DNA of 64,000 nt from Candidatus Altimarinota bacterium (lineage in GTDB: Bacteria > Patescibacteriota > Gracilibacteria > BD1-5 > UBA6164), in contig JBBILU010000006.1 in NCBI GenBank assembly GCA_037444775.1, forward strand, positions 8,899 through 72,898. The letters run 5' to 3'. Shown here piece after piece: positions 8,006 through 58,191 of the stretch (the first letter of the stretch is position 1; the number at the start of each line of letters is the position of its first letter). The position numbers and the translations under genes are program-made. The notes below the pieces were generated by a model. The model ran no database searches, was not told where the DNA came from, and saw only the letters and a list, made by a program, of their open reading frames with translations.

Positions 8006-8043
8006 CCTCACCCCCTAGCCCCCTCTCCTTTAGGGGAGGGGGG
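8006..8043. repeat. Family A palindromic element, intergenic
   Basis: cctcaccccctagccccctctcctttaggggagggggg, two nt after the stop of the COG0523 gene. Confidence 0.8.
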
Positions 8044-8071
8044 AAATATATAAATTAAAATTTATTATTTT

Positions 8072-8896
8072 ATGAAAAAAACTTATTCTTTGGCTCTATG
8101 ATGATGAGCAGCTAGATGACTTTGTCATATTTGAGTTTTGAAATATATTGAAGAAAATAAAATAGAAATTAATGAAATTTCTTGAACAAGTATGTGAGCA
8201 ATAATTTGAGCTTGTTTTGCTATTTGAATGAAATCTGAAGAAATAGCTATTTTTGCAAAAAGTTTAAATTTTTTGAAATTAATAGATTTTAATTTGAAAC
8301 AATGAATTGTTGCTGGGAAAAAAGTCACTAAGAAACTAGAAGAATTATTTCGAGAAATAAAAATAGAAGATACAAAAATTCCGTTAAAAATTTTAGCAAC
8401 AAATTTGGAAACTGGTAAAAAAGAAGTTTTTACAAAATGAAAAATATCTGATGCTGTGAGAGCTAGTATAAGCTTACCAAGTATTTTTACACCTCATAAA
8501 ATTTGAGAAAATAGCTATTTGGATTGATGATTAACAGAAAATTTGCCAGTATTATCTTTGGATTGACAAAATATTATAGCAGTTTCAGCTGTTATGTGAA
8601 AAACCACAAAAATAGAAACTACAAAAAAAATTGGAGTTTTTGAATTCAAAAGATGATTTTGGAATTTGAATTATCAAATTTTGAAAAAAACTATTCTTAC
8701 AATGATGTCAACAAATGAAGAATTGTCTGTTAGATTAGCTATTTTAAATGAAAAAAGTATGAATAAAATTGCTAATTCTGAGTGAAAAAATATAATTCTT
8801 CTAGCTCCAGAAGTTTGAAATTATGAAGTTTATGACTTCAATAAAGTTGATGAATTGGTTGAATTATGATATAAAGAAGCTAGTTTGAAATTGTAA
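8072..8896 (+). CDS. Patatin-like phospholipase
   Basis: LGGGAARG oxyanion motif (all Gly as TGA), GTSMGA nucleophile elbow, DGG catalytic Asp. 274 aa. Confidence 0.85.
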
Positions 8897-8913
8897 ATTT
8901 TAACTAAACAAAA

Positions 8914-10194
8914 ATGTTTGCATTCCAATTATGAAGAGAATTTAAGCTGTCAATTGCTGAAATATTAGCAGTTTTTCCAGATATAAAAATAATAAATTTC
9001 TCAAAAGAAATTTTAATAGCTGATAATATTTTAAAAAAAGAAATTCTAGAAAAAATTAATTTTTTAGGTTGAACACAAAAAGTTATTGAGATACCCTACT
9101 CTACCATCTCCTTTGGAGTAGATAGTGTAGATAAGAATTTTGAAGAAATTATTTTAGAAAAAGCTAAAGAAAAAGAAGGAAAGTTTAATTACTGACTAAA
9201 TATTTTTTCAGACAAAAAAAATGTAGATTTGAAAAAAAATCTCTCAAAAATAAAAAAATTTCTTAGAGAAAATGATATAAATTCAAGATTTATAAATAAT
9301 GATTTCAAAAATCTTAATTCTGCTCAAATAATTTGAGAAAAGTTAGTAAAAAAAGAAACAGATTTTAATATTATAGAATTAGAAAATAATAATTATTTTT
9401 GAAAAACTATTTGGATTCAAGATATTAATTCTTATTCCAAAAGAGATTATGATAAAGAAAGAGATATGCAAATTTGAATGCTTCCTCCAAAACTAGCTCA
9501 AATTATGATAAATTTAGCATCTAATTTCCCCATACCCCCTAAAATAGGGGGAAAACAAAATTTTTATCCATCCCCTATTTTAGGGGTTTATAGGGGTAAT
9601 ATTATTTATGATCCTTTTGTTTGACTTGGAACGGTTTTACTTGAAGCAAAACTTATGTGATTTAAAAAACTTTTTTGAAGTGATTTGAATGAAAAAATGG
9701 TAGAAACTGCAAGTAAAAATTTGAATCCCCCTGCTTTCAAGATCCCCCTTATTAAGGAGAACAAGAATTATATTGTAAAAATTGAAAAACTTAATGCAAA
9801 ATTTATAAATGAAGCTAATTTTTGGAATGAAGTAAAAGATTGAACTATAGTTACAGAATGATATTTATGAGAAGTTATGACTCAAAGTAATATTAATTTA
9901 GATAGAATACAAAAGCAAAAAGAAGCTTTATTAAAAATTTATAAACCTTTTTTTGAAAATTTAAAAAAATGAAAGTTTTCTTGAATTATTGTAATTTCTT
10001 TTCCATTTTGGGAAATAAAATGAAAATTTGTTTATTTTGAAGAAATTTATGAGGTTTTAAAAGAATATTCTGAAATAATTAATTTTTTTCCAGAAAGTCT
10101 TGATTTGAAAACAAGTAAGTCTTGAAGTTTGTTTTATAAAAGGGATAAACAACTTGTATGAAGAGAGATTTTTAAGCTTAAAATAAAAAAATAA
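8914..10194 (+). CDS. SAM-dependent RNA methyltransferase (UPF0020 / Trm11-like)
   Basis: MLPPKLAQIMINLA ... IIYDPFVGLGTVLLEA ... FGSDL motifs. Frame verified at 9478, 9601 and 9721. Carries three or four in-frame repeat insertions. Confidence 0.6.
9094..9130. repeat. Family A-like palindromic element inside CDS
   Basis: ccctactctaccatctcctttggagtagatagtgtag, translated as IPYSTISFGVDSVD. Confidence 0.6.
9527..9599. mobile_element. Family B MITE-like element inserted in frame in the methyltransferase gene
   Basis: tccccataccccctaaaataggggg-N20-cccctattttaggggtttataggggtaa. Terminal inverted repeats are homologous to the element at 46489-46571. Translated SNFPIPPKIGGKQNFYPSPILGVYRGN, directly before the SAM motif. 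Confidence 0.75.
9727..9760. repeat. Degenerate GC-rich palindromic insertion inside CDS
   Basis: tccccctgctttcaagatcccccttattaaggaga, translated NPPAFKIPLIKE. Confidence 0.4.
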
Positions 10195-10279
10195 TCAAGA
10201 AATTTTTTGGATTATTTTTTTCTTGAGATTTTTAACTTTTTTAATAATATACAAGCAAATTAATTCATAAAAATAAACT

Positions 10280-11530
10280 TTGAAAAATAACTTTGATATT
10301 GTGATAATTTGAGCTGGAGCAGCTGGGCTTTTTGGAGCAATAAATATTTCAAAAGATTTTTCTAAATTAATTCTTGAAAAAAATCCAAAACCTTGAGTAA
10401 AAGTCTTACTTTCAGGTTGAGAAAGAGCAAATGTTAGTAATATAGATATAGAACCTGAAAGAGATTATTTTGGACAAAATAAAAAAGCTTTGAAAAGTAT
10501 TTTTGCAAGATGCAATCAATGGGATATTATGGCTTGGTTTTCAGAAAATAGAATAAATATAGTTGAAGAAGATAGATGAAGATTAATTCTTGAAAGTTGA
10601 AACTCTAAAGAATTGCTAAATATTTTAGTAAAAAAGGCAAAAGAAAATAATTCTGAAATTATTTGTAATAGTGAAGTTGTGAAAATAAAACACTCTCTAA
10701 TTCCCTCCTCTTTCCTAAGGATGGAAGAAAATAAGGAAAAAATATTTAGAATTGAAACAAAAACTTGAGAAGAATATTTTGCTAAATATGTTATTGTTTC
10801 TACTTGATGAAAAAGTTTTTTTCAGGTTTGAACAACTGGAGATTGATATAATTTTGCAAGAAATTTTTGAATAAATATTATTCCTCCAACAAGAGCTTTG
10901 TGATGACTTTCTACCAAAAAAGATTTATCAAGTATTAGCTGAATTTCTTGTAATGTTAATTTAGAAGTTTTTGATAAAAAAAAATCCCCTCTCCTTGAAA
11001 AGGAGGGAGCTAGAGGGTGATTTTATCAAGAAACTTGACCAATTTTATTTACTCATTTCTGAATAAGCTGACCAATCATTTTTAATGCTTGAAATGCTAT
11101 TTGAGAATATCTGAATAAATCCCCCCTCCTTGGAAAGGAGAGAGCTGGAGAGTGGTCTGAAATAGAAGTTATTTATGAAAAATATTTAACCCAAAATATT
11201 TATATAAAATTAAACTTTGATTTAGAAAAAACTCCAAAAAACATAATAAAATTCTTTGAATTAGACAAAAAAATAAATATAAATTGAACTCAAATTTATA
11301 ATACAGAAATAATTTTGGATTTACAAAATTTTAGAAGTTGGAAAGAAGCAAAGGCAACTGGTTGATGAATAGATTTGAATGAATTAGATAAATTTTTGCA
11401 GTCAAAGAAAGTTCCAAATTTATTTTTTATTTGAGAGATATGTGATATTACTGGGAAAACTGGAGGATTTAATTTGCAATGGGCCTGGAGTAGTGCATTT
11501 TGTGCAAGTGAATTTTTTAGTAGAAATTAA
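10280..11530 (+). CDS. HI0933-family (BaiN/YhiN-like) NAD(P)/FAD-dependent flavoprotein
   Basis: TTG start, then NNFDIVIIGAGAAGL dinucleotide fold, LSGGERANVSN, STGGKSF..GTTGDGY, C-terminal GEICDITGKTGGFNLQWAWSS. 416 aa. Three in-frame repeat insertions. Confidence 0.85.
10683..10728. repeat. Degenerate family A-like insertion inside CDS
   Basis: ctctctaattccctcctctttcctaaggatggaagaaaataaggaa, translated HSLIPSSFLRMEENKE. Confidence 0.4.
10985..11020. repeat. Family A palindromic element inside CDS
   Basis: tcccctctccttgaaaaggagggagctagagggtga, translated KSPLLEKEGARGG. Confidence 0.8.
11120..11155. repeat. Family A palindromic element inside CDS
   Basis: tcccccctccttggaaaggagagagctggagagtgg, translated KSPLLGKERAGEW. 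Confidence 0.8.
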
Positions 11531-11532
11531 AT

Positions 11533-12958: not shown

Positions 12959-14677
12959 ATGAAACACTTAAAAGTAAAAATTGATAAACTTGAATTTAAT
13001 GGAGAAATTGTTCTAAAAGACATTGATTTCACAATAAATAAATCAGATAGAATAAGCATAGTTTGAAGTAATTGAAGCTGAAAAACAACTTTGTTAAAAA
13101 CAATAATTTGAGAAATCTCAAATTTTGATTGAAATATAGAAAATATTTGAAATCTGACTTTAGGATATTTACATCAAATTTATTCAGATAATGAAGAAAA
13201 ATCTGTTTATGAAGAACTAAAAGATTGATTTAAACAAATAAAAAATCTAGAAAAAGAGTTAGCAAATCTTGAACGAGAAATGGCTACAAATTGCGATGAA
13301 AAAATTATAGAGAAATTTAGTGAAACTCTGGAGCTTTTTAATAATATTGGTTGATATGAATATTCAAATAAAATTCATCAAGTTGCAAATTGAATGTGAA
13401 TTTTTCATTTATTAACAAGAAAGTTAGTTGAAGTAAGTTGATGAGAAAGAACAAAAATTGCTTTAGCAAAAATTCTTTTGGAAAGCCCAGATATTTTATT
13501 TTTGGATGAACCAACAAATTTCATAGATATGAATTCTGTTGAATGGTTAGAATCTTATTTAAAAAATAAATGGTCTGGTTGATTTGTTATTATTTCTCAT
13601 GATAGAGAGTTCCTTGACAAAACTTGTAACAAAACTTTTGAAGTACAATATGGAAGATGAATAACTTTTTATCATACAAATTATTCTAAATATGTAATTG
13701 AAAGAGAAAAAATAGAAAAAATTAAAATGGATGATTTTATAAGACAAGATGAATATATCAAAAAACAAGAAACTTTGATAGATAGATTTAGAGCTTGATC
13801 TAGAGCTTGATGGGCAAAATCAAGAGAAAAAATGATAGACAAAATGGAAAAATTAGAAAAACCATTTATCCCTCGTAAACCAAAGTTTTTATTTAATTAT
13901 TCAAAAGAAAGTCCAGAAAAATTAATTTCTTTCAAAGAAGCTTTTATTTGAAGAAAAGAACCTTTGTTTTTTATTTCTGAAGCTATTTTACATAAATGAC
14001 AAAGAATTTGAATAGTTTGAGAAAATTGAGTTTGAAAATCAACAATGTTAAAAACTATAATTTGAAAGGTTGATTTACTTGATTGATATATGAGCAAATG
14101 AAAATGAACTGATTTTTTGTATTATAGTCAAATGCACGAAGAATTAGATAAAAAGTTAACTGTTAGAGATAATTTTAAGCTTCATGGAATTGATTATCCA
14201 GATGAACATTTAATTTGAATAATGAGGCATTATTTATTTGAAAGAGAAGATTTAGATAAAAAAGTTTGAGAACTTTCTTGATGACAAACTTCTAAGCTAC
14301 TTTTTGCTATAATAGGGCAAAAAGAATGTAATTTATTAATTCTTGATGAACCAACAAATCATCTTGATTATGATACAAGAGAAAGTTTGGAAGAATCTTT
14401 GAAAAATTTCGGTTGAACAATTTTATTTATTTCTCATGATAGATATTTTGTAAACAAATTAGCAAGTAATATTTGGTTTATAGATAAAGGAGAACTTAGT
14501 ATTTCTTATGGGAATTATGCTGATTATAAATACAAGTTAGAAAATTGAATTTGAATGGATATTTGTGTTTTTGATGAAGAAGCTCAATTAAATTTAGTCC
14601 TTGAAGAAAAATTAGGAGAAGCTGGGGCTAGGAAAATTAAAAATAAATTTAAAGATGGGAAAAAGAGGAAAAACTAA
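12959..14677 (+). CDS. ABC-F family ATPase (two NBDs, no TMD)
   Basis: GSNGSGKTT and GENGVGKST Walker A, LSGGERTK and LSGGQTSK signatures, LDEPTN x2, basic C-terminal tail. 572 aa. Confidence 0.9.
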
Positions 14678-28537: not shown

Positions 28538-28873
28538 ATCTAAAATATGCTTCTATATATGAAAAAGCTGGAGTATATGTACTACTCCTGTTCATGTTCT
28601 TTGAACTGGAATATTGTCATTTGTTAACAAAACTCAAAGTTTATGTCATTTTGTAATAACATTTATTTCATCTGCTTGTGTTTTTTCTAATAGGCTACTT
28701 CTCTCTTCTAAGGAAAGATTGAGTGAAGTATTATTTGGAGTATTCATTGCAACTTCTCCCTCAACAAAAGACAATAACTCGTATCTTGTTAAATCTTTAT
28801 TTACTGTGTAAGTATAATTTTGTTTATCAACTGGATCAACTAAATCTCAAATCACTCAGATCTTTTTTCACAT
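28535..28873 (-). CDS. Hypothetical protein with a pilin-like C-terminal segment, possibly a 5'-truncated remnant
   Basis: 112 aa from the first in-frame ATG. ...DLVDPVDKQNYTYTVNKDLTRYELLSFVEGE resembles the globular part of type IV pilin-like proteins, but no N-terminal hydrophobic helix is present. The frame stays open upstream through the 80-bp repeat. Confidence 0.3.
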
Positions 28874-28952
28874 TTCTATCGTCCCGTTTCAAATCCGACC
28901 AGTTTTATTAGATTCAAAACTTGGACTTAAAAACTCATAAAATTGTTCTAAA
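28873..28952. repeat. 80-bp direct repeat, copy A
   Basis: 77/80 identical to 54070-54149 in the same orientation. Confidence 0.9.
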
Positions 28953-28998
28953 TAATTATAGGAAATGAGTTTAGAGCATCATAAGCTCCAAAATATTT

Positions 28999-29087
28999 TG
29001 GCGGAAAGGAAGGGATTTGAACCCTCGGTGCATTGCTACACACACGATTTCCAATCGTGCTCCTTAAACCACTCGAGACACCTTTCC
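28999..29087 (-). tRNA. tRNA-Ser(GGA)
   Basis: GGAAAGG/CCTTTCC acceptor, anticodon arm CACGA-TTGGAAA-TCGTG, long variable arm, canonical GGTTCAAATCC T arm, G73, encoded CCA. Confidence 0.9.
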
Positions 29088-29148: not shown

Positions 29149-29179
29149 CGCTCTCCTCTAAGGAGAGAGTAGAGTAAGG
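29149..29179. repeat. Family A palindromic element, intergenic
   Basis: cgctctcctctaaggagagagtagagtaagg. Confidence 0.7.
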
Positions 29180-29201
29180 TCTTAATATTAAAAGTGAGGT
29201 A

Positions 29202-30635
29202 CTATAATATATCTTTTACACTAATTATTTCCATAACTGGAATTTCTTTATCTCATCTTTGAATATCATTAATTGCAATTAATTTATCTGTATAATTCAA
29301 TAAACCTTTTTTATTCAAAAATTTTATAGCATCTTCCAAAGTTTTGGTATAATTCTTTGAATCCCAAGATTCTAAATAAATCGGTTCTATTCAAAAAAAT
29401 GAATTGCAAATAGATACTGTTTTTTGGCTATTTGTAAATGCATATGTTTTTATTTCTGGTCTAAAAGCTGATGCAAGTCTAGCAAGTAATCAAGATTTTG
29501 TTAAAACTATAACAGCTTTTGCTCAAAGTTCTTCTCAAATAAAAATTCAACTTCTAATTAATAATTTTTTTTCTATATCTCTCTCATTTAATCAAGTAGC
29601 AACAAAACTAAAATGATCATATTTCATATTTTTTTCTGCTTCTTCTATAAGAGAAGTCATCATTTTTACACTTTCAACTGGAAATTTTCAAATTGCAGTT
29701 TCTCAAGAAAGCATTAGACAATCTGGTTTTTGAAGAGTTGCATTATAAACATCTGAACTTTCTGCTCTAGTAGGAAAAGGATTTTCTATCATTGTTTCAA
29801 GTAAGTGAGTTGCAACAACAACAATTTTCCCATTTTCTTTACATTTATCAACCATTTGTTTTTGATAAACAGCTAGTTTTTGAATCGGAACTTCTATTCA
29901 TAAATCTCATCTAGCTACCATAACTCAATCGGAAGCCATAATTATTTCATCTAAATTATCTATTGCTTCTTCATTTTCTACTTTTGAAATAATCTTTATA
30001 TTTTCTCATCAATTTGAATTTAATAAATTTCTCATTTCTTCTACATTTCAAGCATTTCTGATAAAAGAAGCTGCAATAAAAGAAAATCAATTTTTTATTC
30101 ACCATAAAATATCTTCTCTATCTTTTTCTGTAACTCAAGGAAGTCTCAATCTAACTCAAGGTAAATTTATATGTCTTCTTGATCAAATTAATGCTGAATT
30201 CAAAGCTTTTACTAAAACATAATCATCATATTTTTCAAGAACTTCTACATTTAAAAGTCCAGAGTCTAAAATTATATTTTTACCAATTTGAATATCTTCA
30301 GCCAAAAACGGATAATCACAAAATAAACTTCTTTCTCATTCTAAAGCTTCAAAATTAGAATAAATTTTAAAAATTTCTCAAGTTTCAAAATTTATTTTTT
30401 CTTTCACATCTCAAGTTCTAATTTCTGGTCATTTTGTATCTAAAAGTAAACTTAAATTTGTTAATCAAGCTGAATTTAATTCTTTTATTAAATTAGCTGT
30501 TTTCAAAGAATCCTCATGATTTGCATGAGAAAAATTAAATCTAATAATATTTACTCAAGCTTTGTACAAATCTATTAATTTTTCTCTAGAATTTGTAACT
30601 GGTCATAATGTAGCAATAATTTTAGTTCTCTTCAT
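29202..30635 (-). CDS. pyk: Pyruvate kinase
   Basis: MKRTKIIATLGP...NIIRFNFSHA...LLDTKGPEIRTG...MVARGDLGIEVP...MLSGETAIGKFP. 477 aa. Confidence 0.95.
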
Positions 30636-30667
30636 AAAATATGGTTATTAATACAAATATAGTCTAA

Positions 30668-37078: not shown

Positions 37079-38842
37079 TTAAATCTCTCTAACCATATAT
37101 TCTCACTGCAAAATATATCATCTTTTTTCATAATATTGCCTAACTCAAACTCAAGAAATAACAGCTATTTTATTGAATCAAGCATTTTTAGCTATTTCTT
37201 CAGCTTTTGCAATAAGTTTTTTTCAAAAACCTATATGTTGACCAAAAGTTGAACCTTTTTCATTTATAGAAAGTTGGTCTCAAAAAGTATGAATTTCTCT
37301 AATCAAAGCTGCTCATTCTAACTCTGGAAAAATTTTTCCCTCACCCCCTAGCCCCCTCTCCTTTGGAGTAGAGGGGGAAATAGTATTCTGCGCCTTCTCC
37401 TCCAAAGGAGAAGGCTGGGATGAGGTGTCACTCGGCAATCTCAACCTTAACAAACTAAAAATAGTTCTATCAATTGGATCTTCAAAAGTCAAGAAAAATT
37501 CTTTTCAACCACTAGCTTCATATTCAAAAATATTTAAAACAGCATCACGAGGATTATTTTTTCAATCTTTGATTTCCCTATGACGAATATCAACAAGTTT
37601 TATTCATTCAGATTTCAACTTATCTTCAACAATTTGTCTAAGATTTGCCAAATGTGAACCTTCAAGAATTTCACTTGCTGGAATATCTCTATAAGTTCTG
37701 TTTATTCTAACATATTCAGGAATCATTGTTTCAAGTTTGCAAGTCAAATTTATTAATGTTTCATCATCATAAGCCTTAAATCATCAAGTTTTCCAAATTT
37801 CTGTTAATTCAGAATTATTTGTAACCATCATTGGATAAATTTTTAATTCATCAGGTCTGAAATCTGGATTTTCAAAAACTTCTTTCATAGATTTAATATC
37901 TAGTTCTGGATTAGAACCAAGCAAGTTTGGCATCATATGAGCAACAACTTTGAATCAAGCATTTTTCAACATTTTTGTTGCTTTAATACTTTCAGCATTT
38001 CAATGTCACCTTTTATTTAACTCATTTATTTCATCAATTGTAGTTTGATAACCAATTTCTACACGAGTTACTCAAAATCTTCTTAAATCTTTTATTTCTT
38101 CTTCATTAACCCAATCTGGACGAGTTTCAATTGCTATTCAAATAATTCTACATCTTGTAGTTTCATTTATTTTTTTTGCTTCTTCTAGAGAAGAACTCTC
38201 TTTCATTTTATAAGTTTCTTTTATTTTAAAACTTGCAAATTTATCATTTGAAAAATCTGTTTTTTCAATAAACTTACTCATTTCATCATAAGTATTAAAT
38301 GCATCATAAATTCATTTTATAAAACTTTCTTTATAGGATTTTGGATAAAAACTCCAAGTTCAACCAATAATTCTAACATCATTTTTTTCTATTTTGTGCC
38401 CTGTAATTTCCAAAGCTCTAAGTCTATTATGAATTTGCATTATCGGATCGAATTTATTTAATTCTGCTCTTTGTACTGCTGGTTCATTTGGAATATAACT
38501 TTTTGGTAATCCCTCAAAAGTTGGACAATAAACACATTTTCAAGGACAAGGAAAACTTTTTGTCAAAAGAGAAATCACAGTAACTCAAGACAAACTTCTA
38601 ACTCCTCTTTTTCTAAGAACTTTTGTCAAAACTAAATCCTCTTCTATTTCTCAATTATTTATCAAAAAATTATATCTTTCTATTAATTCTATACTAGAAA
38701 AAGGTTTTACTATTTTGTATTCTCCATAAATCTTGTTTTTTAGCTTATGAAAAACATCTTTAGTAAAAACTTTAGTATTAGATTTTATTTCATCATATGC
38801 ACTAAAAATTATTTTATCAATTATTTCATTTTTATTTATCAT
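37079..38842 (-). CDS. elp3: Elp3-like radical SAM / GNAT acetyltransferase
   Basis: CPGKCVYCP radical SAM cluster, IIGGTWSFY, VEIGYQTT, C-terminal GNAT (FGQHIGFGKKLIAKAEEIAK). 587 aa. A double palindromic element sits in frame before FPELEGAALIREIHTFG. Confidence 0.8.
37338..37427. repeat. Composite (two inverted units) family A element inside elp3
   Basis: ccctcaccccctagccccctctcctttggagtagaggggg-N13-cgccttctcctccaaaggagaaggctgggatgaggtg. Translated (minus strand) [31 protein letters not shown]. Confidence 0.9.
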
Positions 38843-38848
38843 TTTTTC

Positions 38849-38877
38849 TTGACTTTTTGGTTATTATTTAATATAAT
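38849..38877 (+). promoter_or_regulatory. Near-consensus sigma-70 promoter for the small RNA
   Basis: TTGACT (38849-38854), 17-nt spacer, TATAAT (38872-38877). Confidence 0.65.
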
Positions 38878-39055: not shown

Positions 39056-41182
39056 TTAAATATTTTTTAAAAATTCTTCTAAACTTATTACAGAAATTCA
39101 TAACAAATTAGCTTTTTGTAACTTACTTCAAGCCTTTTCTCAAGCAAGTAAAAAGTTAGTATTTTTTGAAACCGAAGAAACAAATTCTCATCAACTTTTT
39201 TCTAAAATTTCTACTAATTCATCACGGGAATATCACTCAAAACTTCCAGTTATACAAACTTTTTTTCAGAAAAATTTATTTTGTGCCATCCTCTCTCCTC
39301 TAAGGAGAGGGTTAGGGTGAGCTTGTGTTGATGTGGAATTATCAAACTCCAAAACTTCAAATAAATCTTTAATAATTTTTTTGTGAGCATCGTTGGAAAA
39401 ATATTCTACCAAATTTTTCGCAATTTCTGGTCAAATATCAGGTAAACTTATTAATATTTCTATATTTTCAAAAGCTTTCAAAAATATTTCTAAGTTAAAT
39501 TTCTCAAAACTTAATGACAAAATATATTTTTCAAGAGTTTTTGCTGTTTTTTTACCAACTCCAGAAATTCAAAGAGCTGTAATAAATTTTTTTAAATCAG
39601 TTTTTTTAGCTTCTGAAACAGATGAAATTAAATTAGAAACAGATTTTTCTTTAAATCATTCAAGTTCAAGAATTTTTTCTTTTTTAGATGAAATTTTGAA
39701 AACATCAACTATATTATGAATAATTCAAAAATTTAAAAATAATTCTACTTGTTTTTCTCAAAGTCAATCAATATTAAATCATTGCTTCCCTACTGCAAAA
39801 GCAAGTTTTTCCGACTTTTGAGCTGGACAATCTACAGAATTTGGACAATAATATCTAACTTTATCTTCATCTTTTTGAATTTTTGTATTACAACTTGGAC
39901 AAAATTCTGGTGGAAGAATCTTTTCTAATTTATTCTCTTCTTGGGATGAGCTTACAACAGAAATAATTTTTGGAATTACTTCTCAAGCTCTCTTCAAAAA
40001 AACATAATCTCAAATATTTACTCCTAAATTTTCAACTTCTTCATAATTATGTAAAGTTGCTCTTTTTACTGTTACTCATCAAATTATAACTGGTTCAAGA
40101 TTAGCTACTGGGGTAATTGTTCCTGTTCTTCAAACTGAATGTTCTACAGAAATAATTTTACTTGTAAAAATTTCTGCTGGAAATTTATAAGCAATTGCAT
40201 ATCTTGGATGATGTTCTGTTTTTCATATAGTTTCCCATAAATGAATATCATTAACTTTCAAAACAAGTCAATCAATATCAAAATCAATTTCTTTTTTTGT
40301 ATTTCAGAAATTTTCAATATTTTTTATAACTTCCTCAATTCAATTACAAATTTTGAAATAAGAAGAAATTTCAAATCATAAAGTTTCTAAATATTTTATA
40401 ACAGAAAAATAAGCATAACTTTTTCAAATATAAAATAGAAAAAAATCTTGTTTAAACTCTCATAAATCATAAGCAAAAAACTTCAAGTTTCTTTTTTCTG
40501 TTAAATTTGTATCCAAAGTTCTAAGACTTCAACTTGCTGCATTTCTCGGATTAGAAAAAACTTTTTCTCAATTTTTTATAGCATCTTTATTTAATTTTTC
40601 AAAGCTAGAAATAGGCATAATAACTTCTCATCTAACTTCTAAATCTCATAAATAAGAAATTTTTTTAGGAATATTTTTTATTTTTTTTACATTTTCAGTT
40701 ACATCTTCTCATAAAATTCAATTTCATCTAGTTATAGCTTGAACAAATTCTCAATTTTTGTAAATTAATTCTACTCAAAGTCAATCAAATTTGAATTCCA
40801 AACAATATTCAATATTCTTCAAAACTAAAAAGCTGTTATTAGATACTAATTTCATAACTCTCTCATCAAAATCTCTTAAATCTTTTTCATTATAAGTATT
40901 ATCAAGACTAATCATAGGTCTTGAATGTTTTACTTTTGCAAAAGTTGATTCTTTAACTTCAGCTCAAACTTGTCCTCAAAATTTTTTTTCTAAAGAAAAT
41001 TTCTCTTCTAGAAATTGCAATTTTTTGAGTAAATCATCATAATCTTTATCACTAATTATTGGTGATTGTTTATTATGATACAAATCAGAATGATATTCAA
41101 GAATTTTTTGCAACTCTAAAACATCTTTTTCACTAAAATTATCTAAGTTTTTTTCTAAAAATATTTTTGATTTCTCCAACAT
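39056..41182 (-). CDS. ligA: NAD-dependent DNA ligase
   Basis: CLEFKFDGLGVE (KxDG), zinc finger CPSCNTK...YYCPNSVDCP, HhH repeats, C-terminal BRCT (KKVCITGSF...). 708 aa. Palindromic insertion lies in the HhH-BRCT linker. Confidence 0.95.
39290..39322. repeat. Family A palindromic element inside ligA
   Basis: cctctctcctctaaggagagggttagggtgagc, translated (minus strand) AHPNPLLRGER. Confidence 0.85.
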
Positions 41183-41332
41183 AAATTTAATTAATTTTAA
41201 TATCTAAATTTTTTTGATTTTATATAATTTTTTAAAAAAGTATAATAAAAAGTTGAAAAAAAGTAAAATAAAAATAGAATATCTCTCGTTAAAAATTCTT
41301 AACAAACAATTTTAATTTTTAATTTTAAAAAT

Positions 41333-42476: not shown

Positions 42477-42527
42477 AATTATTTTTATATAATCTAAAAA
42501 ATTTATTTGATAATTTAACAAAAAATA

Positions 42528-44039
42528 ATGAAAAAACAAGAATTTTTAGAAAATATTACAGTAGAAAAATTAGTTTTTGGAGGAAAATGATTTGCTAAAC
42601 ATTCAGATTGAAGAATAATTTTTATTACATGAGGAGTTGTTCCATGAAGCATTGTTAACTTAAGAGTTCTAAAAAAGAAAAAAGATTATATAGAAACTCA
42701 AGTTCTTGATGTTGTGAAAAAATCCAATTTAGAAAAAGTACATCCAAATAATATTTATTGAGAATGTTGAGGTTGTAAACGGGTAAATATTCCTTATATA
42801 GAACAATTAAAAATTAAAGAAAATCAAGTAAAAGAATCTCTTAATTTACTTAAAAAATATAATGAAAAATATAATGAAAATTCTTTTTCATCAATTCTTC
42901 CATCTCCTTTAGTTGATTGATATAGAAATAAAGTGGAATTTTCTTTTGGAAAATTAATTAGTGCAAAAGCTGGAATTGAAGAACATTTTAATGTTTGATT
43001 TCACAAACAAGGAAGTTTTAGCCAAGTTCAAGATTTTGAAGGTTGTATTTTAATTGATGATTTAGCTAATAAAATTTATAAAAAAATTAAAGATTTTTCA
43101 AAAACTTCTTGATTACCTGTTTATGATCAAAAAACTTGAGAATGATTTTTTAGACATATATTGCTAAGAAGAACTTTTTTTGCAAATGAAATTATGATTG
43201 TTTTTAGTTTTAATGATAAATACCATACACAATCCATCCTTAGTAAAGAGGGAGTTAGAGGATATTCTGCCTTTATCCAAGAAATCAAATCTTTTTTTCT
43301 TGAATTAGCAAAAGAATTTAGTGAGATAAAATCTATTTATTTGTCTTATAATTCAAATAAAGCTGATATTGCAATTTGAGAGCTTGAATTAATTTATTGA
43401 GAAAAAACAATTAAAGAAAAACTTTTAGATTTAAATTTTGAGATTTCTCCAACAAGTTTTTTTCAAACAAATTCTTATTGAGCAGAACTTTTGTATTCAA
43501 AGGTTTTAGAAATAGCAGAGGCTCACCCTACCATCTCCTTAGAGGAGAGGGATAACACCCCCTCTCCACTGAGGAGAGGGCTGGGGTGAGGTTCTAAAAC
43601 TGTCCTAGATTTATATGGTTGAACTTGAACAATTTGAATGATTTTTGCTAAGGCTTGAGCTAAAAAAGTTTATTCTGTTGAACTTGTGAAATCAGCTTCA
43701 CAAGATTGACAAAATAATGCAAAGAAGAATAATTTAGAAAATATAGAATTTATTAATGCAAAAGTTGAAGATTTTTTAGAAGATTATTTAAAAACTTCTA
43801 AAAAAGCAGATTTGTTGATTATTGATCCACCAAGGGCTTGAATGCATCCAAGTGCTTTACCAAATATTTTGAAATTTGATTCAGAGCAAATAATTTATGT
43901 AAGCTGTAATCCAAGCACTTTAGCAAGAGATTTGGAATATATTTTAAAAAATAGCACTTACAAAATAGATAAAGTTATTCCAGTTGATATGTTCCCACAC
44001 ACTCATCATATAGAAACTATTGTAAGTTTGAGAAAGTAA
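42528..44039 (+). CDS. rlmD: 23S rRNA (uracil-5-)-methyltransferase RlmD/RumA family
   Basis: TRAM-like N-terminus, Cys cluster YGECGGC, FFQTN, VLDLYGGTGTIG SAM motif, IIDPPRAG, YVSCNPSTLARD. 503 aa. Confidence 0.9.
43521..43591. repeat. Composite family A element inside rlmD
   Basis: gctcaccctaccatctccttagaggagagggat-aaca-ccccctctccactgaggagagggctggggtgagg. Translated AHPTISLEERDNTPSPLRRGLGGG, immediately before the SAM-binding motif. Confidence 0.9.
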
Positions 44040-50518: not shown

Positions 50519-51238
50519 ATGGCTACAACACCTATAAAAGATGAGGAAGATTTAATTATTCTATCTGATGATGATATTCCTACAAACAATATTCAAAAGA
50601 TTTCTGTAGAGCAAAAAACAGAAGAAAAAAAAGAAGAAGAATTAATTTCTTTTGATAGTTTTGATTTTTGAAATAATTTTTCTGTTAATTCTAGTAATAC
50701 TGCAGAAAAAGTCGAAGTAAAAGAAACAAATAATGATTTCTGACTTAATTTAAACTTAGATGCTTTTGAAGAAAAAATTGAAGAAAAAGTAAATTTAGAA
50801 GAAGTAAAAATAGATAAACCGAAAATTATAATTCCTGAAATAAATTTAGATTTAACAGAAAAAACAGAAGAAAAACAAACTTTAGAAATTCCAGAACCAA
50901 AAGAGGAAAAAGTTAATATTTCTTCGTCTGTAATGAATTCAGCAATTTCTTCTTTTTCTCCAAATTCAAACTGAACTTCAAGTTCATCATCAACTTGAAC
51001 AACTTGAGATGATGATATGAATGCTATTTTGGAACAAACAATTGCAAAGTTACTTGCAAGAAAAGCAAAAATAAATGAAATTAAAACTCAGACTCAAACT
51101 CAAATTTCTAATTTAAATACAGAAATAAAAACTTTGCAAGATAAAGTAAAACATCTAAAAGATGATGTTAAAGAAAATGAAGAAGAAATTGCAAAAATAG
51201 ATGAAAATACAAAAGTTTTAGAAAAGATGAAAGTATAA
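50519..51238 (+). CDS. Hypothetical acidic protein with C-terminal coiled coil
   Basis: 239 aa, same frame as track ORF 51017..51238. Low-complexity Glu/Lys/Ser-rich. Confidence 0.5.
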
Positions 51239-51302
51239 AAATATTTTGAAAAAGTCAAAAAAATTATATAATTTTTTTGACTTTTATTTTTTTAAAAAAA
51301 TT

Positions 51303-53168
51303 ATGACCGAAATATTAAAAATATTAAAAACTTACAAATTAAATAAGAAATTATTTTTCTATTTAATTTTTTTTACAATAAGTTCTCAACTTCTTATAGT
51401 TAGTATACCTATCGTAACATCCAAAATAACAGGAGTTTTAGAATTCAAATGAGATTTAAAAGATTTTTATTTTTGGTGCTATATTCTGATTATTGTTTCA
51501 ATCTTTTTGTGTATTTCATTTTTTATGGAGGTTTTTTTTAGAGAATATCTTTGGCTAAAAACTTGGACAGAATTGATGAAAAGTTCAAGAAAAAAACTTT
51601 TTGAAAAAGATTATAAAACAATTATAGAAGTTTGAACTTGAAAACTTATTTCAAGACTAGCAAGATGAATTGATGCTCAAACTGATATTTTTACTGCTCT
51701 TGTAAGCATATTTTTCAATGCTGGACTTAGAATTATTTTACTTGTAATTGTATTTTTCTTTACTTCACCACTTTTTGCTTGGATAATAATTTTTTGAGCA
51801 ATTTTTCTTTGAATAGTTGTTTATTTTACAAGAAAATATGCAGAAAAATATCAAAAAGAAGAAGTTGAACTTTGGGAAAAAAGTTCAAGAGTTGAAGCAA
51901 AATTAATTATGAATAATCTTGATTTAAGAATTCTTTGAAAAGAAAAAAAAGAATTAGAGCTTTCAGATGAAGTTCTCTCAAAACTCCCAAATGTAGCAAG
52001 AAAAGCTGATATTCCAAGAAATGTTCAATGAAATTTACTTGAACTTATCACAAGAATAATAGTATTTTTTATTTACTTTGTTTTTGGTTTACAAATTTTA
52101 AAATGAGAACAAAGTATTGCAAATATGACTTTGATAATTATGAGTCTTTGGACTCTTTATCATCCTCTAAACAAAGCTATGGACGAGATTTGAAGAATTA
52201 GTCGTGTTTGGGATAAATATATGAAATTACAAAAGTTTTTGGATACTGAAATTGAAATAAAAAATTGAGCTAAAGTTTTTGAATACAAAAAATGAGAAAT
52301 TAAATTTGAAAATGTAGATTTTTTTTATAATAATGATAGAAAAATTTTTGAAAATTTAAATTTAAAAATAAAATCATGACAAAAAAATGCTTTTGTTTGA
52401 CATAGTTGATGAGGAAAATCAACAATTACAAAATTAATTTTGAGACTTTATGAAATAAGTTCTTGAAAACTTTTGGTTGATTGACAAAATATTAAAGACA
52501 TAAAAATAGAAACTTTTTATAATAACATTGCTTATTTATCTCAAGAACCAGCTGTTTTTGACTGAACTATTAGAGAGAATATGGAGTATGCTTTGAGTCA
52601 AAATTCCCAGTCTTCTCCTTTAGACCTCACCCCAACCCTCTCCTTTGGAGGAGAGGGAGAAAGAGAGAAATCTGTTATAATCCCATTTGTTGAAATTGAC
52701 AAGAATGTAGAGGTGTTTGGTAAAAACATCTCAAAAGATGATGAACAAGAAAAACAAATTTGGGAAGCTCTTAAAAAAGCCAAAATGGATGATTTGGTAA
52801 AATCTCTTCCAAAATGACTTGATACAGAAATTTGAGAAAAGTGAATAAAACTTAGTTGATGAGAAAAACAAAGACTTGCAATTGCAAGAGTTTTTCTAAA
52901 AAATCCTAAAATAATTATTCTTGATGAACCAACTTCTGCACTTGATAGTATAAGTGAAAATCATATTACAGAAAGTTTAAATGAACTTTTGAAATGAAAA
53001 ACTAGTATAATAATAGCTCACAGATTGCAGACAGTTATTAATTCTGATAAAATTTTTGTTATAGAAAATTGAAAAATAGAATCAGAATGAACTCATTTAG
53101 AGCTTTTGAAAAAATCAAAAATATATAAAACTTTGGTTGATTTGCAACATTGATGTTTAGTTGAGTAG
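51303..53168 (+). CDS. ABC exporter, fused TMD-NBD (MsbA-like)
   Basis: Six-helix TMD, then [39 protein letters not shown]. An upstream in-frame TTG at 51246 is an alternative start. Carries an in-frame insertion of about 45 aa, including a palindromic element, between the Q-loop region and the signature motif. Confidence 0.9.
52611..52667. repeat. Family A palindromic element inside the ABC exporter gene
   Basis: tcttctcctttagacctcaccccaaccctctcctttggaggagagggagaaagagag, translated [19 protein letters not shown]. Confidence 0.85.
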
Positions 53169-53990: not shown

Positions 53991-54069
53991 AATAATGTGT
54001 GGAAATTATTTTATATTAAAATAAATTATAACATACTTTTACAAAAAGTCAATACCTATTGGTCTATCG

Positions 54070-54149
54070 TTTCTATTGTCCCGTTTCAAATCCGACCAGT
54101 TTTGTTAGATTCAAAACTTGGACTTAAAAACTCATAAAATTGCTCTAAA
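54070..54149. repeat. 80-bp direct repeat, copy B
   Basis: 77/80 identical to 28873-28952. Lies between the ileS terminator and the start of the gene at 53990. Confidence 0.9.
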
Positions 54150-54152
54150 AAA

Positions 54153-54188
54153 TAAAAAAAATCTAGCAAATTTTTGCTAGATTTTTTT
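54153..54188 (-). terminator. CTAG-hairpin terminator after ileS
   Basis: aaaaaaatctagcaaa / tttgctagattttttt. Confidence 0.7.
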
Positions 54189-54194
54189 ATTTTT

Positions 54195-57100
54195 TTATTT
54201 TTTTAATTTTATTTCTACTTTCATCTCATCAAACTCAATTTCTTTTTCTAAATCAAAACTTTCTAAATTACCTTCAATTTTTGAAAGAGTTTCTGTTTCT
54301 ATATAATTTTCAAAGTTTTTTATAGCTTGTGCTATCCTTTCTCCAATTGGAAAAGAGTTAGAGAGAGGGCTTAATTGTATTTTTATTCTATCATCAACTT
54401 GATAATCAGCTTCTTTTCTAGCTTCTTGAATTGCTCTTACTAAATCTCTTGCTATTCATTCTTGCTGTAATTCTTCTGTTAAACTTGAATCCATAGCAAT
54501 TACCATTCAAAATCCAGCCTCAATTTCATATTGAGAATCTCCAGCCTCAAAAGCAAGTTCATATTCTCAAGATTCAAGAATGAAACTTGTGTTATTTTTT
54601 TTCTCCAAAGGAGAAGCTAGGTGAGGTATTCTAACTCTTCCTTCTTCCAATTCCTCAAAATTTCCTGCTTTTGCTTCTTGCAAAATATATTTTACATCTT
54701 GTCCAAACTTTGGACCAATAAGCCTTGCATTTGGTTTACAAATTTTTTTTGCAATAGAATCAGCATTTACTATAATTACTTCTTTTACATTTAATTCTTC
54801 TTTCAAAATATTTTTATAATATTCTTCCAGATTTTCTCAAATAGTAATTGATTTCAAAGGTTGTCTTACTTTAAGCTTGTGATTTACTCTCCAAGCCAAA
54901 CCAAGATTTATAAATTTTTGAGTTTTTGCCATTTGTTCACTCAAATCTTTATTAACAAAAGCACTCACATATTCAGGAAAAATATCTAGATGAACTGATT
55001 TTTTTCCAGTTAAATTTTTGTAAATATGATCTGCTAAGAATGGCATAAATGGAGCAATAATTTTTGAAACTTCCACCAAAACTGTATGAAGAGTATTGTA
55101 AGCTTGTATTTTGTCTCCATCATTTTCTGATTTCCAAAATCTTTTTCTAGATCTTCTAATATACCAATTTGTCAAATTATCCATAAATGCAGGAATATTT
55201 TTGGTTGCCTCATTGATTCTATAGCCATCTAATCACATTGAAACTTCTCAAATCAAAGTATGAAGTTCTCATAAAATCCATTTATCTAGTGGATTTTGAA
55301 GTGGAATTTTTGGGAAAGTGATAATTTGAGCATTTTTTACAGTTGGCATTTCAAGATGTGCATAGTCTAAACTCATTCACAAATACTTTTTGAAAAAAGG
55401 TCTAGCACTTCCAGCATGTCCAACAAACAAAATATTTTTGTCTCTATTTTTTAACAGAATTTCTTCAAAAGCTGTTTCAACTCTTGTTTGAAATTGTTCA
55501 TAATTTTCTATACTAGAATTTTTAAAAATTTTTCTCAAAGCTACTTTATCCTTCAAATCTACTCAATAAATTTCTGCTATTTCTTTATGACTCTTCCCTT
55601 CAAATTCAGCATAATTTTGTTCTTTAATTCCATCATTTATAAGAATTTCTCAAGTATATCATGAATTTTCAGCAATAATTTTTGCAGTTTCTAAAGCTCT
55701 ATCTAAAGGAGAACTTACTATCAAATCAAATGTAATTCCAGCAATTTTTGCATTTTGTCAAGATTTTTTTGCTTGTTCTTTTCATTTTTCAGTTAATTTA
55801 GGATTATCCATAGCTCCAGAAATTCCAGCAGACTCAACTGTCCACCTAGCATTACTTTCACTTTCAGCATGTCTTACAAAAAATATTTGTCATTTTGGAA
55901 CCTCAAAGTTATCAATATTTGCATAAGTAGTGAAAAAACTATAGGTATTCCACAAAGGCAAAATTACTTTTTTCACCACTTCTTCAACTCCAATTTCACT
56001 AAATCTCAAATCTTGAGCCTCAACAACTGGAGAATTCATTAAATAAAATCTCATTGCATCAGCACCATATTTATCAAAAATTATTTCAGGAGCTGGATAA
56101 TTTTGTAAACTTTTACTCATTTTTTTCCCATCTTCAGCCAAAACAATTCAGTTCACAATAGTGTTAAGTGTAGCAGGAGAATCAAAAAGTGCAGTAGAAA
56201 GAATAATCAAAGTATAAAACCAACCTCTGGTTTGGTCTAATCATTCAGCAATAAAATCTGCTGGGAAGCCCTCACCCCTTGCCCCTCTCCTTTGGAGTAG
56301 AGGGGAGTTTTTTTGCCCGTGCTCCTTCTTCTCCAAAGGAGAAGGTTGGGATGAGGGAAAAGCAAAAGGATAGTGTTTACTTGCATAAGGCATTGCTCAA
56401 CTTTCAAACCAACAATCAAGAACTTCAGGGATTCTTTTTAATTTCTCTCAAGTTTTTGGAGATTTCACAAAAATTTCATCAACAAAATGTTTATGCAAAT
56501 CAACTTCTTTTCAAGTTGCAGTGTAAAAATATTTATTGCCTCTTTTTTCAATCTGCCCAAAATCTTTATTTGCTTCATATAATTCTTCTACACTTCCAAT
56601 ACAAACTTCCTCAGTTTTGTCTTCATTTTGCCAAACTGGAATAGCTGAACCCCAATATCTATTTCTTGAAATATTCCAATCTCTTGCTTGTTCTAGCCAT
56701 TTCCCAAATCTTCATAATTTAATATTTTCTGGTGTCCAATTTGTTTTCAAATTATTTGCTACCATTTTATCTCTAATTTTTTCAACTGCCACATACCAAG
56801 CAGAAATAGCTCTATAAATTAATGGAGTACCACATCTCCAACAATGTGGATAAGAATGATCTATAGTCCCAATATGAAAAGAAAGCTTTTTCTCTTTTAG
56901 TTCAGAAACCACAAAATCATTGAAATCAAAAACAAATTCTCCATTATGTTCTAATAAATTATAAGTTTTTCCAGAATCATCAATATGAGCTACAAAACCT
57001 AAATCTTTTTCTTTTCAAATAATATTATCATCTTCTCAATAAGCTGGAGCAATATGAACAATTCCAGTTCAGCTTTCTGTTGTTACATGATGACCAATTA

Positions 57101-58082
57101 CTACAGAAAAAGAATTTTTTCAAAGTGCAATTCCATTTCATAAATCTGAATTCATTTCAGCCAATTGCAAATAAAAATCATCAAACAATGGCTCATAAGC
57201 AATTCCTACTAAACAAGTTCCAGGATATTCTCTCACAAGAGTATAATCCTCTTCTTTTTTGTAATAATTATTTACTCTTTCTTTAGCCAAAATATATGTG
57301 TCTCCAGTATTTTTATCAAGAATTTCCACATAAATTATATTTTCACCAACTGCAAGTCAAAGATTTGCATAAAGTGTCCAAGGAGTAGTGGTCCAAGCAA
57401 GAATATATTTATTTGGAGAATTTTTTATCTTAAATTTTATAGTAACAGCTTTAGATTGTTTGTCTTTGTATCCTTGATTTACTTCGAAGTTTGAAAGTGG
57501 AGTCGTACATCTTGGACAATAAGGAACAATTCTATTTCCTTCATAAATAAGCCCTTTATCATAAATACTTTTAAAAACCCACCAAACTGATTCCATAAAA
57601 TTGGTATCCATAGTTTTGTAATCATCTTCCATATCAACCCATCTTCACATTCTATTTACTGTTTTTTTCCATTCATCCACATAACCAAAAACATTTGCTC
57701 TACAAGTTTCATTGAAATCATGAACTCAAATTTTATTTTCTATATCATCTTTTCAGTTTATTTTCAACTTTTTTTCAACAATATTTTCAATAGGCAATCC
57801 ATGACAATCCCAACCAAATTTTCTGGTAACTTTTTTTCATTTCATAGTTTGGTATCTTGGAATTACATCTTTGATAGTTCCAGCTAAAATATGTCAATAA
57901 TGAGGAGTTCCAGTTGCAAATGGAGGACCATCATAAAAATTAAACTCATTTTCATTGCTTCTTGAATCCACAGATTCTTCAAAAATTTTTTCTTCTTGCC
58001 AAAACTTTAGCATTTCTTCTTCTAATTTTGGAAAGCTTTGTTTTGGGTTTACTTCTGGGAAGTTCTTAGTTATTTTTGTCAT
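54195..58082 (-). CDS. ileS: Isoleucyl-tRNA synthetase with internal histidine-phosphatase-like domain and three palindromic insertions
   Basis: 1295 codons. All track fragments at 57894, 57357, 57138, 56712, 55890, 54837 and 54567 share one frame. I translated 56712-55182 codon by codon and found no TAA/TAG. Motifs: [12 protein letters not shown] (HIGH), [47 protein letters not shown]. Confidence 0.95.
54601..54626. repeat. Family A element inside the ileS C-terminal region
   Basis: ttctccaaaggagaagctaggtgagg, translated (minus strand) PHLASPLEK. Confidence 0.7.
55305..55892 (-). other. Histidine phosphatase (PGAM-like) domain inserted in ileS, about residues 731-925
   Basis: [12 protein letters not shown] (RHG-type motif), [40 protein letters not shown]. 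Located between ...[20 protein letters not shown] and ...LDKWILGELHTL... of the IleRS anticodon-binding domain. Confidence 0.7.
56269..56357. repeat. Composite family A element inside the ileS catalytic core
   Basis: ccctcaccccttgcccctctcctttggagtagaggggag-N13-gctccttcttctccaaaggagaaggttgggatgaggg. Translated (minus strand) [30 protein letters not shown], between HYPFAF and FPADFIAEG. Confidence 0.9.
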
Positions 58083-58124
58083 AGGTTTTTGGTTAGATTT
58101 TAAATTTGACTTTTAATAAGTTTT
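58036..58124. repeat. ileS 5' segment (first 47 coding nt plus about 42 nt of upstream leader), copy 1
   Basis: Nearly identical to 59144-59232. The coding part also matches 58619-58665. Confidence 0.9.
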
Positions 58125-58158
58125 CTAATATAATATATTTGTTCCTAGAGAACTTAAT

Positions 58159-58191
58159 GGCTCCTAGCAGCTCACCTCCTGAAAAGGAGGT
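58159..58191. repeat. Family A-like palindromic element, intergenic upstream of ileS
   Basis: ggctcctagcagctcacctcctgaaaaggaggt. Confidence 0.6.

Follow-up and report, generated by a model that had tools for sequence, protein, structure and literature searches.

The Escherichia coli repeat known first as BoxC, later as PIT and then as TMECO has the published pattern CCCTCNCCC-N3-6-GGGNGAGGG-N3-GGGNGAGGG, and in vitro it adopts an intrastrand triplex (Holder et al. 2015, PMC4666352). In that survey 3,610 copies were counted over 262 genomes, all proteobacterial, with G/C-rich triplex motifs mentioned for cyanobacteria; E. coli copies were described as 'always intergenic', inverted pairs invariably joined type A to type B, the loci were tied to local genomic variability in E. 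coli, and neither a function nor a link to mobile elements was known to the authors (PMC4666352). Rickettsia palindromic elements (RPEs; Ogata et al. 2000, 2002) are, according to PMC10969869, apparently translated and tolerated in surface regions. Here we describe a GC-rich palindromic repeat of 36-40 nt, a variant of BoxC/PIT/TMECO, in a stretch of 64,000 nt (the window) of Candidatus Altimarinota bacterium, a member of the Gracilibacteria (assembly GCA_037444775.1, contig JBBILU010000006.1, positions 8,899 to 72,898), where 12 of the 15 confirmed units lie within open reading frames (ORFs) and are in frame.

The explanation that we prefer, with a probability of about 0.6, is that these segments are selfish, translated, GC-rich palindromic insertions resembling MITEs (miniature transposable elements with inverted repeats), that they are the Gracilibacteria variant of a pan-bacterial BoxC/PIT/TMECO family, and that the composite copies are DUF559 cassettes minus the nuclease. 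It draws on the identity of the unit, its in-frame status, its insertion relative to homologues, gain and loss between relatives, decay, and the association with DUF559 genes.

The repeat unit and its copies in the window

The unit is about 36-40 nt long, occurs in both orientations and reads CCTCACCCC-N3-6-CCCTCTCC-loop-GGAGAGGG, in which the 3-6 nt linker after CCTCACCCC is CTAGC, TTGC, AAC or AG and CCCTCTCC pairs with GGAGAGGG in a hairpin of 8 bp. CCCTCTCC occurs 10 times in the window (0.11 expected) and CCTCACCCC, with one mismatch, 7 times (0.5 expected). GC-rich islands, in surroundings of 24% GC, coincide with the copies listed in a preliminary description of the sequence; the islands, the overrepresented motifs and most of the coordinates given there stand, whereas the copy at 9727 is unsupported by a shuffle test (p = 0.16) and those at 10683 and 58160 are borderline, with alignment scores no higher than background windows. 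In total the window holds at least 15 units at 12 places, three of these places being inverted pairs of ~90 nt, and three further decayed copies (21466, 28696 and 29149) that were absent from the earlier list.

The three composites (37338-37427, 43521-43592 and 56269-56357) had been said to have pairing outer ends. Each of them forms a long hairpin (z = -4.4 to -6.2; 0 of 200 shuffles equal the real sequence), and their outer blocks pair as terminal inverted repeats would. The ~90-nt composite consists of two unlike ends in inverted arrangement, one with CACCCC and CCCTCTCC and the other with CATCCC and CTTCTCC, a pairing seen at 37338, at 56269 and in a composite of L001, a locus of another Gracilibacteria metagenome-assembled genome (MAG).

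To score degenerate copies, we aligned them locally with the eight clearest units and took shuffles and 4,149 background windows as reference. The copies at 9094, 10985, 11120, 15237, 22754 and 54601 and the left half of 43521 beat all or nearly all shuffles and lie at or near the background 99.9th percentile or above. A covariance model, R1, was built from 27 equal-length copies of other phyla, with no Gracilibacteria among them; its E-values are rough, coming from a quick calibration. The copies are as follows.

8005..8043 (+): single unit, intergenic between a CobW-like ORF (7036-8004) and ORF 8054-8896; all three blocks; R1 E = 0.14; GC island.
9094..9131 (+): degenerate unit in the methyltransferase gene (8908-10194 +); peptide PYSTISFGVDSVD; score 33 versus a shuffle maximum of 22; in frame.
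10985..11020 (-): unit in the HI0933-like flavoprotein gene (10277-11530 +); peptide SPLLEKEGARGG; score 35, p = 0.002; in frame.
11120..11158 (-): second unit in the HI0933-like gene (10277-11530 +); peptide SPLLGKERAGEWS; score 25, p = 0.006; in frame.
15237..15272 (+): decayed unit in the PriA-like gene (14674-15645 -); peptide NSFSFGKRKLGSA; score 28, p = 0.002; in frame.
21466..21500 (-): decayed remnant GAGATGGTTAGAGTGAGGT in an ABC ATPase gene (21289-22236 -); background-scan score 27, above the 99.9th percentile; new.
22754..22793 (-): unit in metG (22368-23999 -); peptide SPLSQPFPPKEKGV; score 26, p = 0.002; weak R1 match; in frame.
28696..28730 (-): decayed unit in ORF 28553-29035 (-); background-scan score 26; similar to the copy at 39289; new.
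29149..29185 (-): decayed intergenic unit directly downstream of pyk (29202-30644 -); hairpin detected by R1; background score 36; new.
37338..37427 (strand unassigned): composite of two inverted units in elp3 (37079-38860 -); R1 E = 6.5e-3 and 3.4e-4; fold z = -4.35; in frame.
39289..39322 (-): unit in ligA (39056-41203 -), in the HhH-BRCT linker by alignment to 2owo; peptide AHPNPLLRGER; R1 E = 0.033; in frame.
43521..43592 (strand unassigned): composite in rlmD (42519-44039 +), just before S-adenosylmethionine (SAM) motif I; peptide AHPTISLEERDNTPSPLRRGLGGG; R1 E = 2.1e-7; fold z = -6.24; in frame.
52611..52660 (+): hairpin-arm fragment and full unit in the ABC exporter gene (51222-53168 +); R1 E = 4.1e-7; fragment score 24, p = 0.002; in frame.
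54601..54627 (-): truncated unit in ileS (54195-58112 -), near the C-terminus; score 36, p = 0.002; in frame.
56269..56357 (strand unassigned): composite in ileS, between HYPF and FPADF; R1 E = 7e-3 and 4e-4; fold z = -4.93; in frame.

Pfam and PDB matches identify the host genes as IleRS, RlmD-like, Elp3, LigA, MetRS, HI0933-like, PriA-like, ABC exporter and methyltransferase, in agreement with the housekeeping functions proposed for them. The Pfam matches are N6_N4_Mtase/UPF0020 for the methyltransferase, HI0933_like for the flavoprotein, PriA_3primeBD and DEAD for the PriA-like protein and tRNA-synt_1g for metG; in the exporter gene 51222-53168 the ABC_tran match is stretched by the insert 52611-52660.

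A variant of BoxC/PIT/TMECO found across bacteria

To one genome per species we applied the pattern CTCACCCC-N2-7-CCCTCTCC-N3-8-GGAGAGGG, requiring exact blocks, and obtained at least 120 genome loci, versus ~0.15 by chance (our own estimate). They include Pseudomonas, Xanthomonas, Enterobacter, Acinetobacter, Chloroflexota, Planctomycetota, Bacteroidota, cyanobacteria, Acidobacteria and Bifidobacterium; host GC ranges from 33% to 73% among the matches listed, and 120 or more viral contigs contain the unit as well. The strict TMECO pattern is matched by 55 of 120 pattern loci, among the matches listed, and by the E. coli copy near ycjD. Moreover, R1 recovers 7 window copies (E = 2e-7 to ~0.03), three copies in L001 and, with E = 3.5e-5, the BoxC copy of E. 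coli, so that the scan with a model of the unit, suggested in the preliminary description, recovers the window copies from an alignment of other phyla. These sequence matches indicate that the window unit is a shorter-armed variant of the BoxC/PIT/TMECO triplex-motif repeat. An element specific to the lineage was rejected because the pattern loci lie in many phyla and a model from other phyla recovers the copies. The Gracilibacterium repeats of Sieber et al. 2019 were also considered and rejected as a match, being an unrelated PTD tandem array, and Rfam holds no family for the element, giving sub-threshold generic hairpin (miRNA) matches only.

Among the matches listed, 7 of the 27 pattern loci below 50% GC lie within long ORFs, so Gracilibacteria are not alone in having in-frame copies, since low-GC genomes of other phyla have them too; from their translations we take the hosts of these copies to be AlaRS, NuoM, HsdR, Dus and LeuRS. 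In the literature we found no account of in-frame inserts, nor of a link between DUF559 and BoxC, an absence which is no proof that they are unpublished.

It could be argued that the copies are immobile and are made repeatedly on the spot by replication or repair, through template switching at hairpins or GC-biased repair, converging on sequences that form triplexes. No transposase is known for the repeat and no clear target-site duplication is visible, the motif is under strong structural constraint, and a triplex forms in vitro, all of which would suit such an origin. However, near-identical sequences of ~35 nt, including the non-structural linker variants and the asymmetric A/B ends, recur across phyla of 33%-73% GC and in viral contigs, which independent local origin does not lead one to expect, and what is inserted comes as clean blocks, 42 and 84 nt long. 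We therefore consider a local origin improbable.

Some viral contigs are dense in units, with at least 13 copies on one of 43.5 kb and 5 copies in 7.3 kb of another; these contigs (L261, L265, L321 (IMGVR_UViG_3300020057_000061) and L254) may be phages or prophage-flanking host DNA. The unit also occurs within a tandem array of period 78 bp in a Bacteroidales MAG (L018, CAIWMX010000024.1, 61-250) and within longer tandem repeats of period ~110-150 bp in Pseudomonas crudilactis and P. chlororaphis (L010, L031).

Genetic code and reading frame

The window has 24% GC, ranging from 21% to 31% along its full length. With table 11 it contains no ORF of at least 150 aa, versus 59 spanning ~63 kb with TGA as sense, and TGA coincides with conserved Gly sites such as those in the P-loops GFLGSGKTT and GHNGAGK. 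The window is thus read with code 25 (TGA = Gly), and all its translations were made with table 25; ORFs cover 88% of this gene-dense genome. The NCBI-derived protein P0001 of the contig is translated in the manner of table 4, TGA codons giving W, and starts at an internal Met.

All intragenic copies keep the host ORF continuous and stop-free, under code 25 only, as the preliminary description had stated in saying that they never break the frame. Its further claim of a single preferred frame fails: the codon phase at the start of the hairpin is 2 in 4 copies, 0 in 3 and 1 in 3, and the two halves of one composite are read in different phases. In the rlmD composite an internal TGA is decoded as Gly (CTG GGG TGA GGT), and code 25 therefore opens a frame that is closed in standard-code bacteria.

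The frame would be irrelevant if the segments were removed before function by RNA splicing, translational bypass or protein splicing. Ribosomes bypass GC-rich hairpin elements in fungal mitochondrial genes. Removal would, however, not need every intragenic copy to add a multiple of three bases free of stops, as is the case here; inserts of 12-30 aa are too short for an intein, Pfam finds only DUF559 in the long cassette described below, and there is no Rfam intron or ribozyme match. Removal is thus very improbable.

Insertion relative to homologues, gain, loss and decay

Insert positions were set by sequence alignment to solved structures, a comparison proposed earlier. Set against solved eukaryote-type structures (8wnd, 9w01), IleRS has ~16 or more surplus residues between HYPF and FPADF; RlmD has ~22 directly before SAM motif I that are missing from 2jjq and 5xj1, and Elp3 has ~26 relative to 5l7j; the LigA copy, in the HhH-BRCT interdomain linker of 2owo, is not clearly surplus. 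The alignments also bear out the reported location of the RlmD and IleRS inserts beside catalytic motifs.

Presence/absence polymorphism, another check suggested at the outset, is evident between close relatives. L001 (IleRS P0002) carries the window's ileS composite at the identical codon together with another single unit, and both inserts are absent from its near relative L003 (IleRS P0009); the two ileS genes share 86% nucleotide identity, and the inserts stand out between them as clean indels, one of 42 nt and the other of net 84 nt. The filled/empty boundaries are ambiguous, with a possible 2-3 bp AAG duplication at one site and 12 nt replaced at the other. The C-terminal ileS unit of the window (54601) is missing from P0002, and other Gracilibacteria have unit-like peptides at that loop. 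The Elp3 insert is common to the window and L003, where it has decayed to 35% GC. Among 70 aligned Gracilibacteria IleRS orthologues, unit-like peptides occur at three loops (after GQIEK, between HYPF and FPADF, and in the C-terminal domain), across many lineages and in single, composite and reverse-orientation forms. From the L001/L003 indels, the decayed Elp3 copy and this survey it follows that the elements are gained, lost and eroded over time, and the orthologue alignment indicates that identical permissive loops receive units repeatedly.

These comparisons also bear on two other explanations. One is an assembly or binning artefact, in which chimeric joins with reads of GC-rich organisms would have introduced the units; the source is indeed a MAG, and the units are frequent in many bacteria that co-occur with it. 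We reject this, since two assemblies made independently in separate projects, whose flanks have diverged, carry the same composite at one and the same ileS codon, the ORFs are continuous, and a third assembly holds decayed versions. The other is that selection keeps the inserts for a benefit to the host, as flexible linkers or as DNA or RNA structures that make transcription or translation pause, end transcripts or favour recombination. Copies do lie at domain boundaries and in loops, the same IleRS loops are repeatedly occupied, the intergenic copies at 8005 and 29149 directly follow genes, where a hairpin could terminate transcription, and TMECO loci are tied to genomic variability in E. coli (PMC4666352). 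Nevertheless, close relatives do without the inserts, copies decay toward AT while the host gene is retained, it is the nucleotide sequence that is conserved across frames and orientations whereas the peptides differ, and earlier work saw no promoter or terminator activity of PIT elements. A host benefit is accordingly unlikely, although less so than a local origin.

IleRS also contains other inserted sequences. In the window, an inserted histidine-phosphatase domain (PF00300; ~55310-55880 (-), within ileS 54195-58112) is conserved across many Gracilibacteria IleRS, and other orthologues have inserted NUDIX, serine-hydrolase and second His_Phos domains, several of them at the loops of GC-rich units. 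Some orthologues presumably have an inserted GNAT-like domain as well, as we read their sequences. A second recurrent IleRS insert, of ~11-21 aa (e.g., QPKNGTGTEDWKNVLQVPVP), follows residue ~275 of the window IleRS in many Gracilibacteria (P0036, P0040, P0043, P0044, P0057, P0060, P0061, P0082, P0085, P0088, P0091, P0110 and P0116) and may represent a second family of in-frame elements. Directly upstream of ileS, 58210-58689 (-) and 58677-59072 (-) hold a PemK/MazF-like toxin ORF, beside a Fic-domain ORF, and the first ~30 residues of the PemK/MazF-like ORF duplicate the IleRS N-terminus. The PriA-like ORF 14674-15645 (-) has just 323 aa, comprising the 3'-DNA-binding domain and the first helicase lobe, and priA may be split or truncated in the window.

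Association of the unit with DUF559 nuclease genes

In the LeuRS of a Cytophagales bacterium (L039), two inverted units enclose a 124-aa DUF559 segment (Pfam PF04480, E = 4.8e-35), and the insert is read through whole in the LeuRS frame; Pfam finds in it only DUF559 and MTES_1575, and no protein-splicing (Hint) domain. A local DUF559 profile identified 6 genes and 1 remnant among ~120 unit-selected loci, each bracketed by or adjoining units; the bracketed nuclease gene encodes ~110 aa with a DUF559 domain of the Vsr-like PD-(D/E)xK type. DUF559 has been grouped with Vsr and the homing endonuclease I-Bth0305I (Steczkiewicz et al. 2012, PMC3424549).

In the reverse test, 120 metagenome loci were picked solely by a back-translated DUF559 DNA motif. 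Among the matches listed, a full three-block unit lies within 250 nt of the DUF559 domain in 26 of the 120 loci and a hairpin within the same distance in 59. None of the low-GC metagenome contigs with DUF559 is code-25-like. Hairpin density is 1.26 per kb near DUF559 versus 0.037 per kb elsewhere in the same loci (34-fold), and the hairpins near DUF559 cluster in two sharp peaks, one on each side of the domain. The unit family is thus tightly associated with DUF559 genes.

Full cassettes are in frame in a 1,420-aa MetH (L154) and a 1,133-aa LeuRS (L227), the latter, on an unclassified metagenome contig, at the same LeuRS position as in L039. The cassettes in LeuRS and MetH belong to low-GC genomes (0.37-0.43), one of them the Cytophagales bacterium, and both L154 MetH and L227 LeuRS have nuclease-less units elsewhere in the same protein. 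In L227 and L138 one end is of the CATCCC/CTTCTCC type and the other of the CACCCC/CCCTCTCC type, the asymmetry seen in the window composites and in L001. Because the same two ends bracket DUF559 in other bacteria, the window composites can be read as a cassette from which the nuclease has been deleted; the window copies would thus derive from DUF559 cassettes, with the DUF559 nuclease as the putative mobiliser of the units. The MetH of L154 (Ga0302186_10000016) has three in-frame insertions: a composite preceding the B12-binding domain (…SPALSEQSQSDIVTSTNSSPLGRSGGAAG…), a decayed single unit and the full DUF559 cassette.

In E. coli K-12, ycjD (annotated DUF559) terminates (…SPSP-stop) within a degenerate unit, and ~170 nt downstream of it a strict TMECO copy lies beside a duplicated ycjD 3' fragment (L124, NC_000913.3 1351040-1351830). 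Upstream of ycjD is a separate 17-bp perfect palindrome, CACCTCATTCTGACAAA…TTTGTCAGAATGAGGTG.

Several observations weigh against our preferred explanation. The window, L001, L002 and L003 (~100 kb of Gracilibacteria DNA, code 25) contain no DUF559 gene. About half of the sampled DUF559 genes are without hairpins, and the third block lies either outside or inside around DUF559, contrary to a simple terminal-inverted-repeat model. There is no clear target-site duplication at the two filled/empty pairs of L001 and L003 ileS. The strict TMECO pattern has no match in the window, because the blocks are 8 nt rather than 9; with each block cut to 7 nt there are two matches. That the window inserts are translated into protein is suggested by one line of evidence, the conservation of frame. 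Moreover, we know of no recognised transposase in DUF559, whose role as a mobiliser is putative. No link of the E. coli repeat to mobile elements was found by Holder et al. (PMC4666352).

The main competing explanation is that the units are landing sites: DUF559 genes and other inserts would enter the centre of pre-existing inverted unit pairs, and the units would spread by another route. Some insertion sequence elements do target repetitive extragenic palindromic (REP) sequences. The bracketed arrangement would be equally expected from such insertion, and it is consistent with this that both block orders occur around DUF559 and that DUF559 is near units in just 6 of the ~120 loci selected by the unit and in 2 of the 120 viral ones, among the matches listed. 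Against it, the hairpins stand at fixed distances on either side of the DUF559 domain, and in two low-GC genomes a whole in-frame cassette stands at one and the same LeuRS position, as if moving in one piece. These suggest that the landing-site explanation, while the strongest of the alternatives, is rather unlikely.

Proposed mechanism and implications

Under the preferred explanation of MITE-like selfish insertions, single units would be half elements, and insertions would fall mainly in genes, the genome being gene-dense. The survivors would be copies that add a multiple of three bases without a stop in tolerant loops or linkers, where they would be translated as Pro/Ser/Gly/Glu-rich peptides, TGA = Gly opening one extra frame of GGGGTGAGG. 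Copies would then drift toward AT, the surplus peptide remaining. A wider reading, to which we give less than even odds, is that BoxC/PIT/TMECO repeats in general are the ends and nuclease-less remnants of pan-bacterial, phage-borne DUF559 endonuclease cassettes that reside in essential genes without splicing, the Gracilibacteria inserts being their decayed footprints. On that wider reading the hairpin ends would encode flexible Pro/Ser/Gly/Glu linkers in most frames, and the nuclease would therefore be a read-through domain of the host protein; TGA = Gly might render Gracilibacteria more permissive to the cassettes.

Selfish DNA within protein-coding genes, of which the RPEs are the best-known case, would thereby extend to the candidate phyla radiation (CPR), and also to Bacteroidota (one classified locus, Cytophagales) and other low-GC genomes. 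A repeat that has passed for 30 years as a curiosity of the spaces between E. coli genes lies elsewhere in frame within genes, where it is probably translated. The DUF559 association offers the first testable candidate for the mover of BoxC/triplex-motif repeats and, conversely, a testable candidate role for the widespread DUF559 proteins such as E. coli YcjD. For annotation, the inserts inflate or distort orthologue alignments of aminoacyl-tRNA synthetases and other MAG marker genes and yield many spurious 'PSPxxGEG' hypothetical ORFs; they are also natural markers of permissive sites in essential enzymes.

Comparison with known systems

With BoxC/PIT/TMECO the window unit shares the three-block sequence (an arm rich in C and the G-rich arm that complements it, then a linker of 3 nt and another G-rich block, GGGTGAGGG), dispersal in both orientations, inverted pairs of two types, and local gain and loss. 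It differs in having blocks of 8 nt rather than 9, in a host that is a CPR bacterium with 24% GC and code 25, and in its location, the E. coli copies being intergenic whereas 12 of the 15 window units are intragenic and in frame.

The preliminary description had likened the behaviour of the repeat to that of RPEs, and the likeness is real: both are palindromic repeats in frame in unrelated housekeeping genes of a reduced AT-rich genome, although the RPEs, as PMC10969869 describes them, measure ~100-150 bp and belong to Rickettsia, as opposed to units of 36-40 nt and composites of ~90 nt, and the two were compared by description only. Unlike RPEs, the window units are strongly GC-rich and their family is spread over many phyla. 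To our knowledge, no nuclease is linked to RPEs.

Like MITEs, the elements have inverted ends, small size and presence/absence polymorphism (L001 vs L003 and the IleRS survey), and longer relatives with the same two ends carry a protein-coding gene, DUF559. They depart from MITEs in that the linked gene is a Vsr-like nuclease and no recognised transposase, in having no evident target-site duplication, and in that single half-units are common.

Homing-endonuclease cassettes are comparable in placing a small nuclease gene in conserved housekeeping genes (LeuRS, MetH), in filling one site in different genomes, in leaving degenerate nuclease-less remnants, and in that the Vsr/DUF559 clade contains a proven homing endonuclease, I-Bth0305I (PMC3424549). 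The cassettes described here, however, have no intron or intein, their predicted nuclease is read through within the host protein, and their insertion sites are numerous and unrelated.

REP sequences, their inverted doublets (REPINs) and the associated RAYT genes resemble the present system in the short GC-rich palindromes, in inverted doublets as the likely mobile form and in one linked gene family as the proposed mobiliser. REPINs are extragenic and genus-specific and have a conserved GTAG head, the feature that a Y1 transposase (RAYT) recognises. In contrast, the window unit has a variable linker (CTAGC, TTGC, AAC or AG) and a sequence common across phyla, and the gene linked to it encodes a PD-(D/E)xK nuclease.

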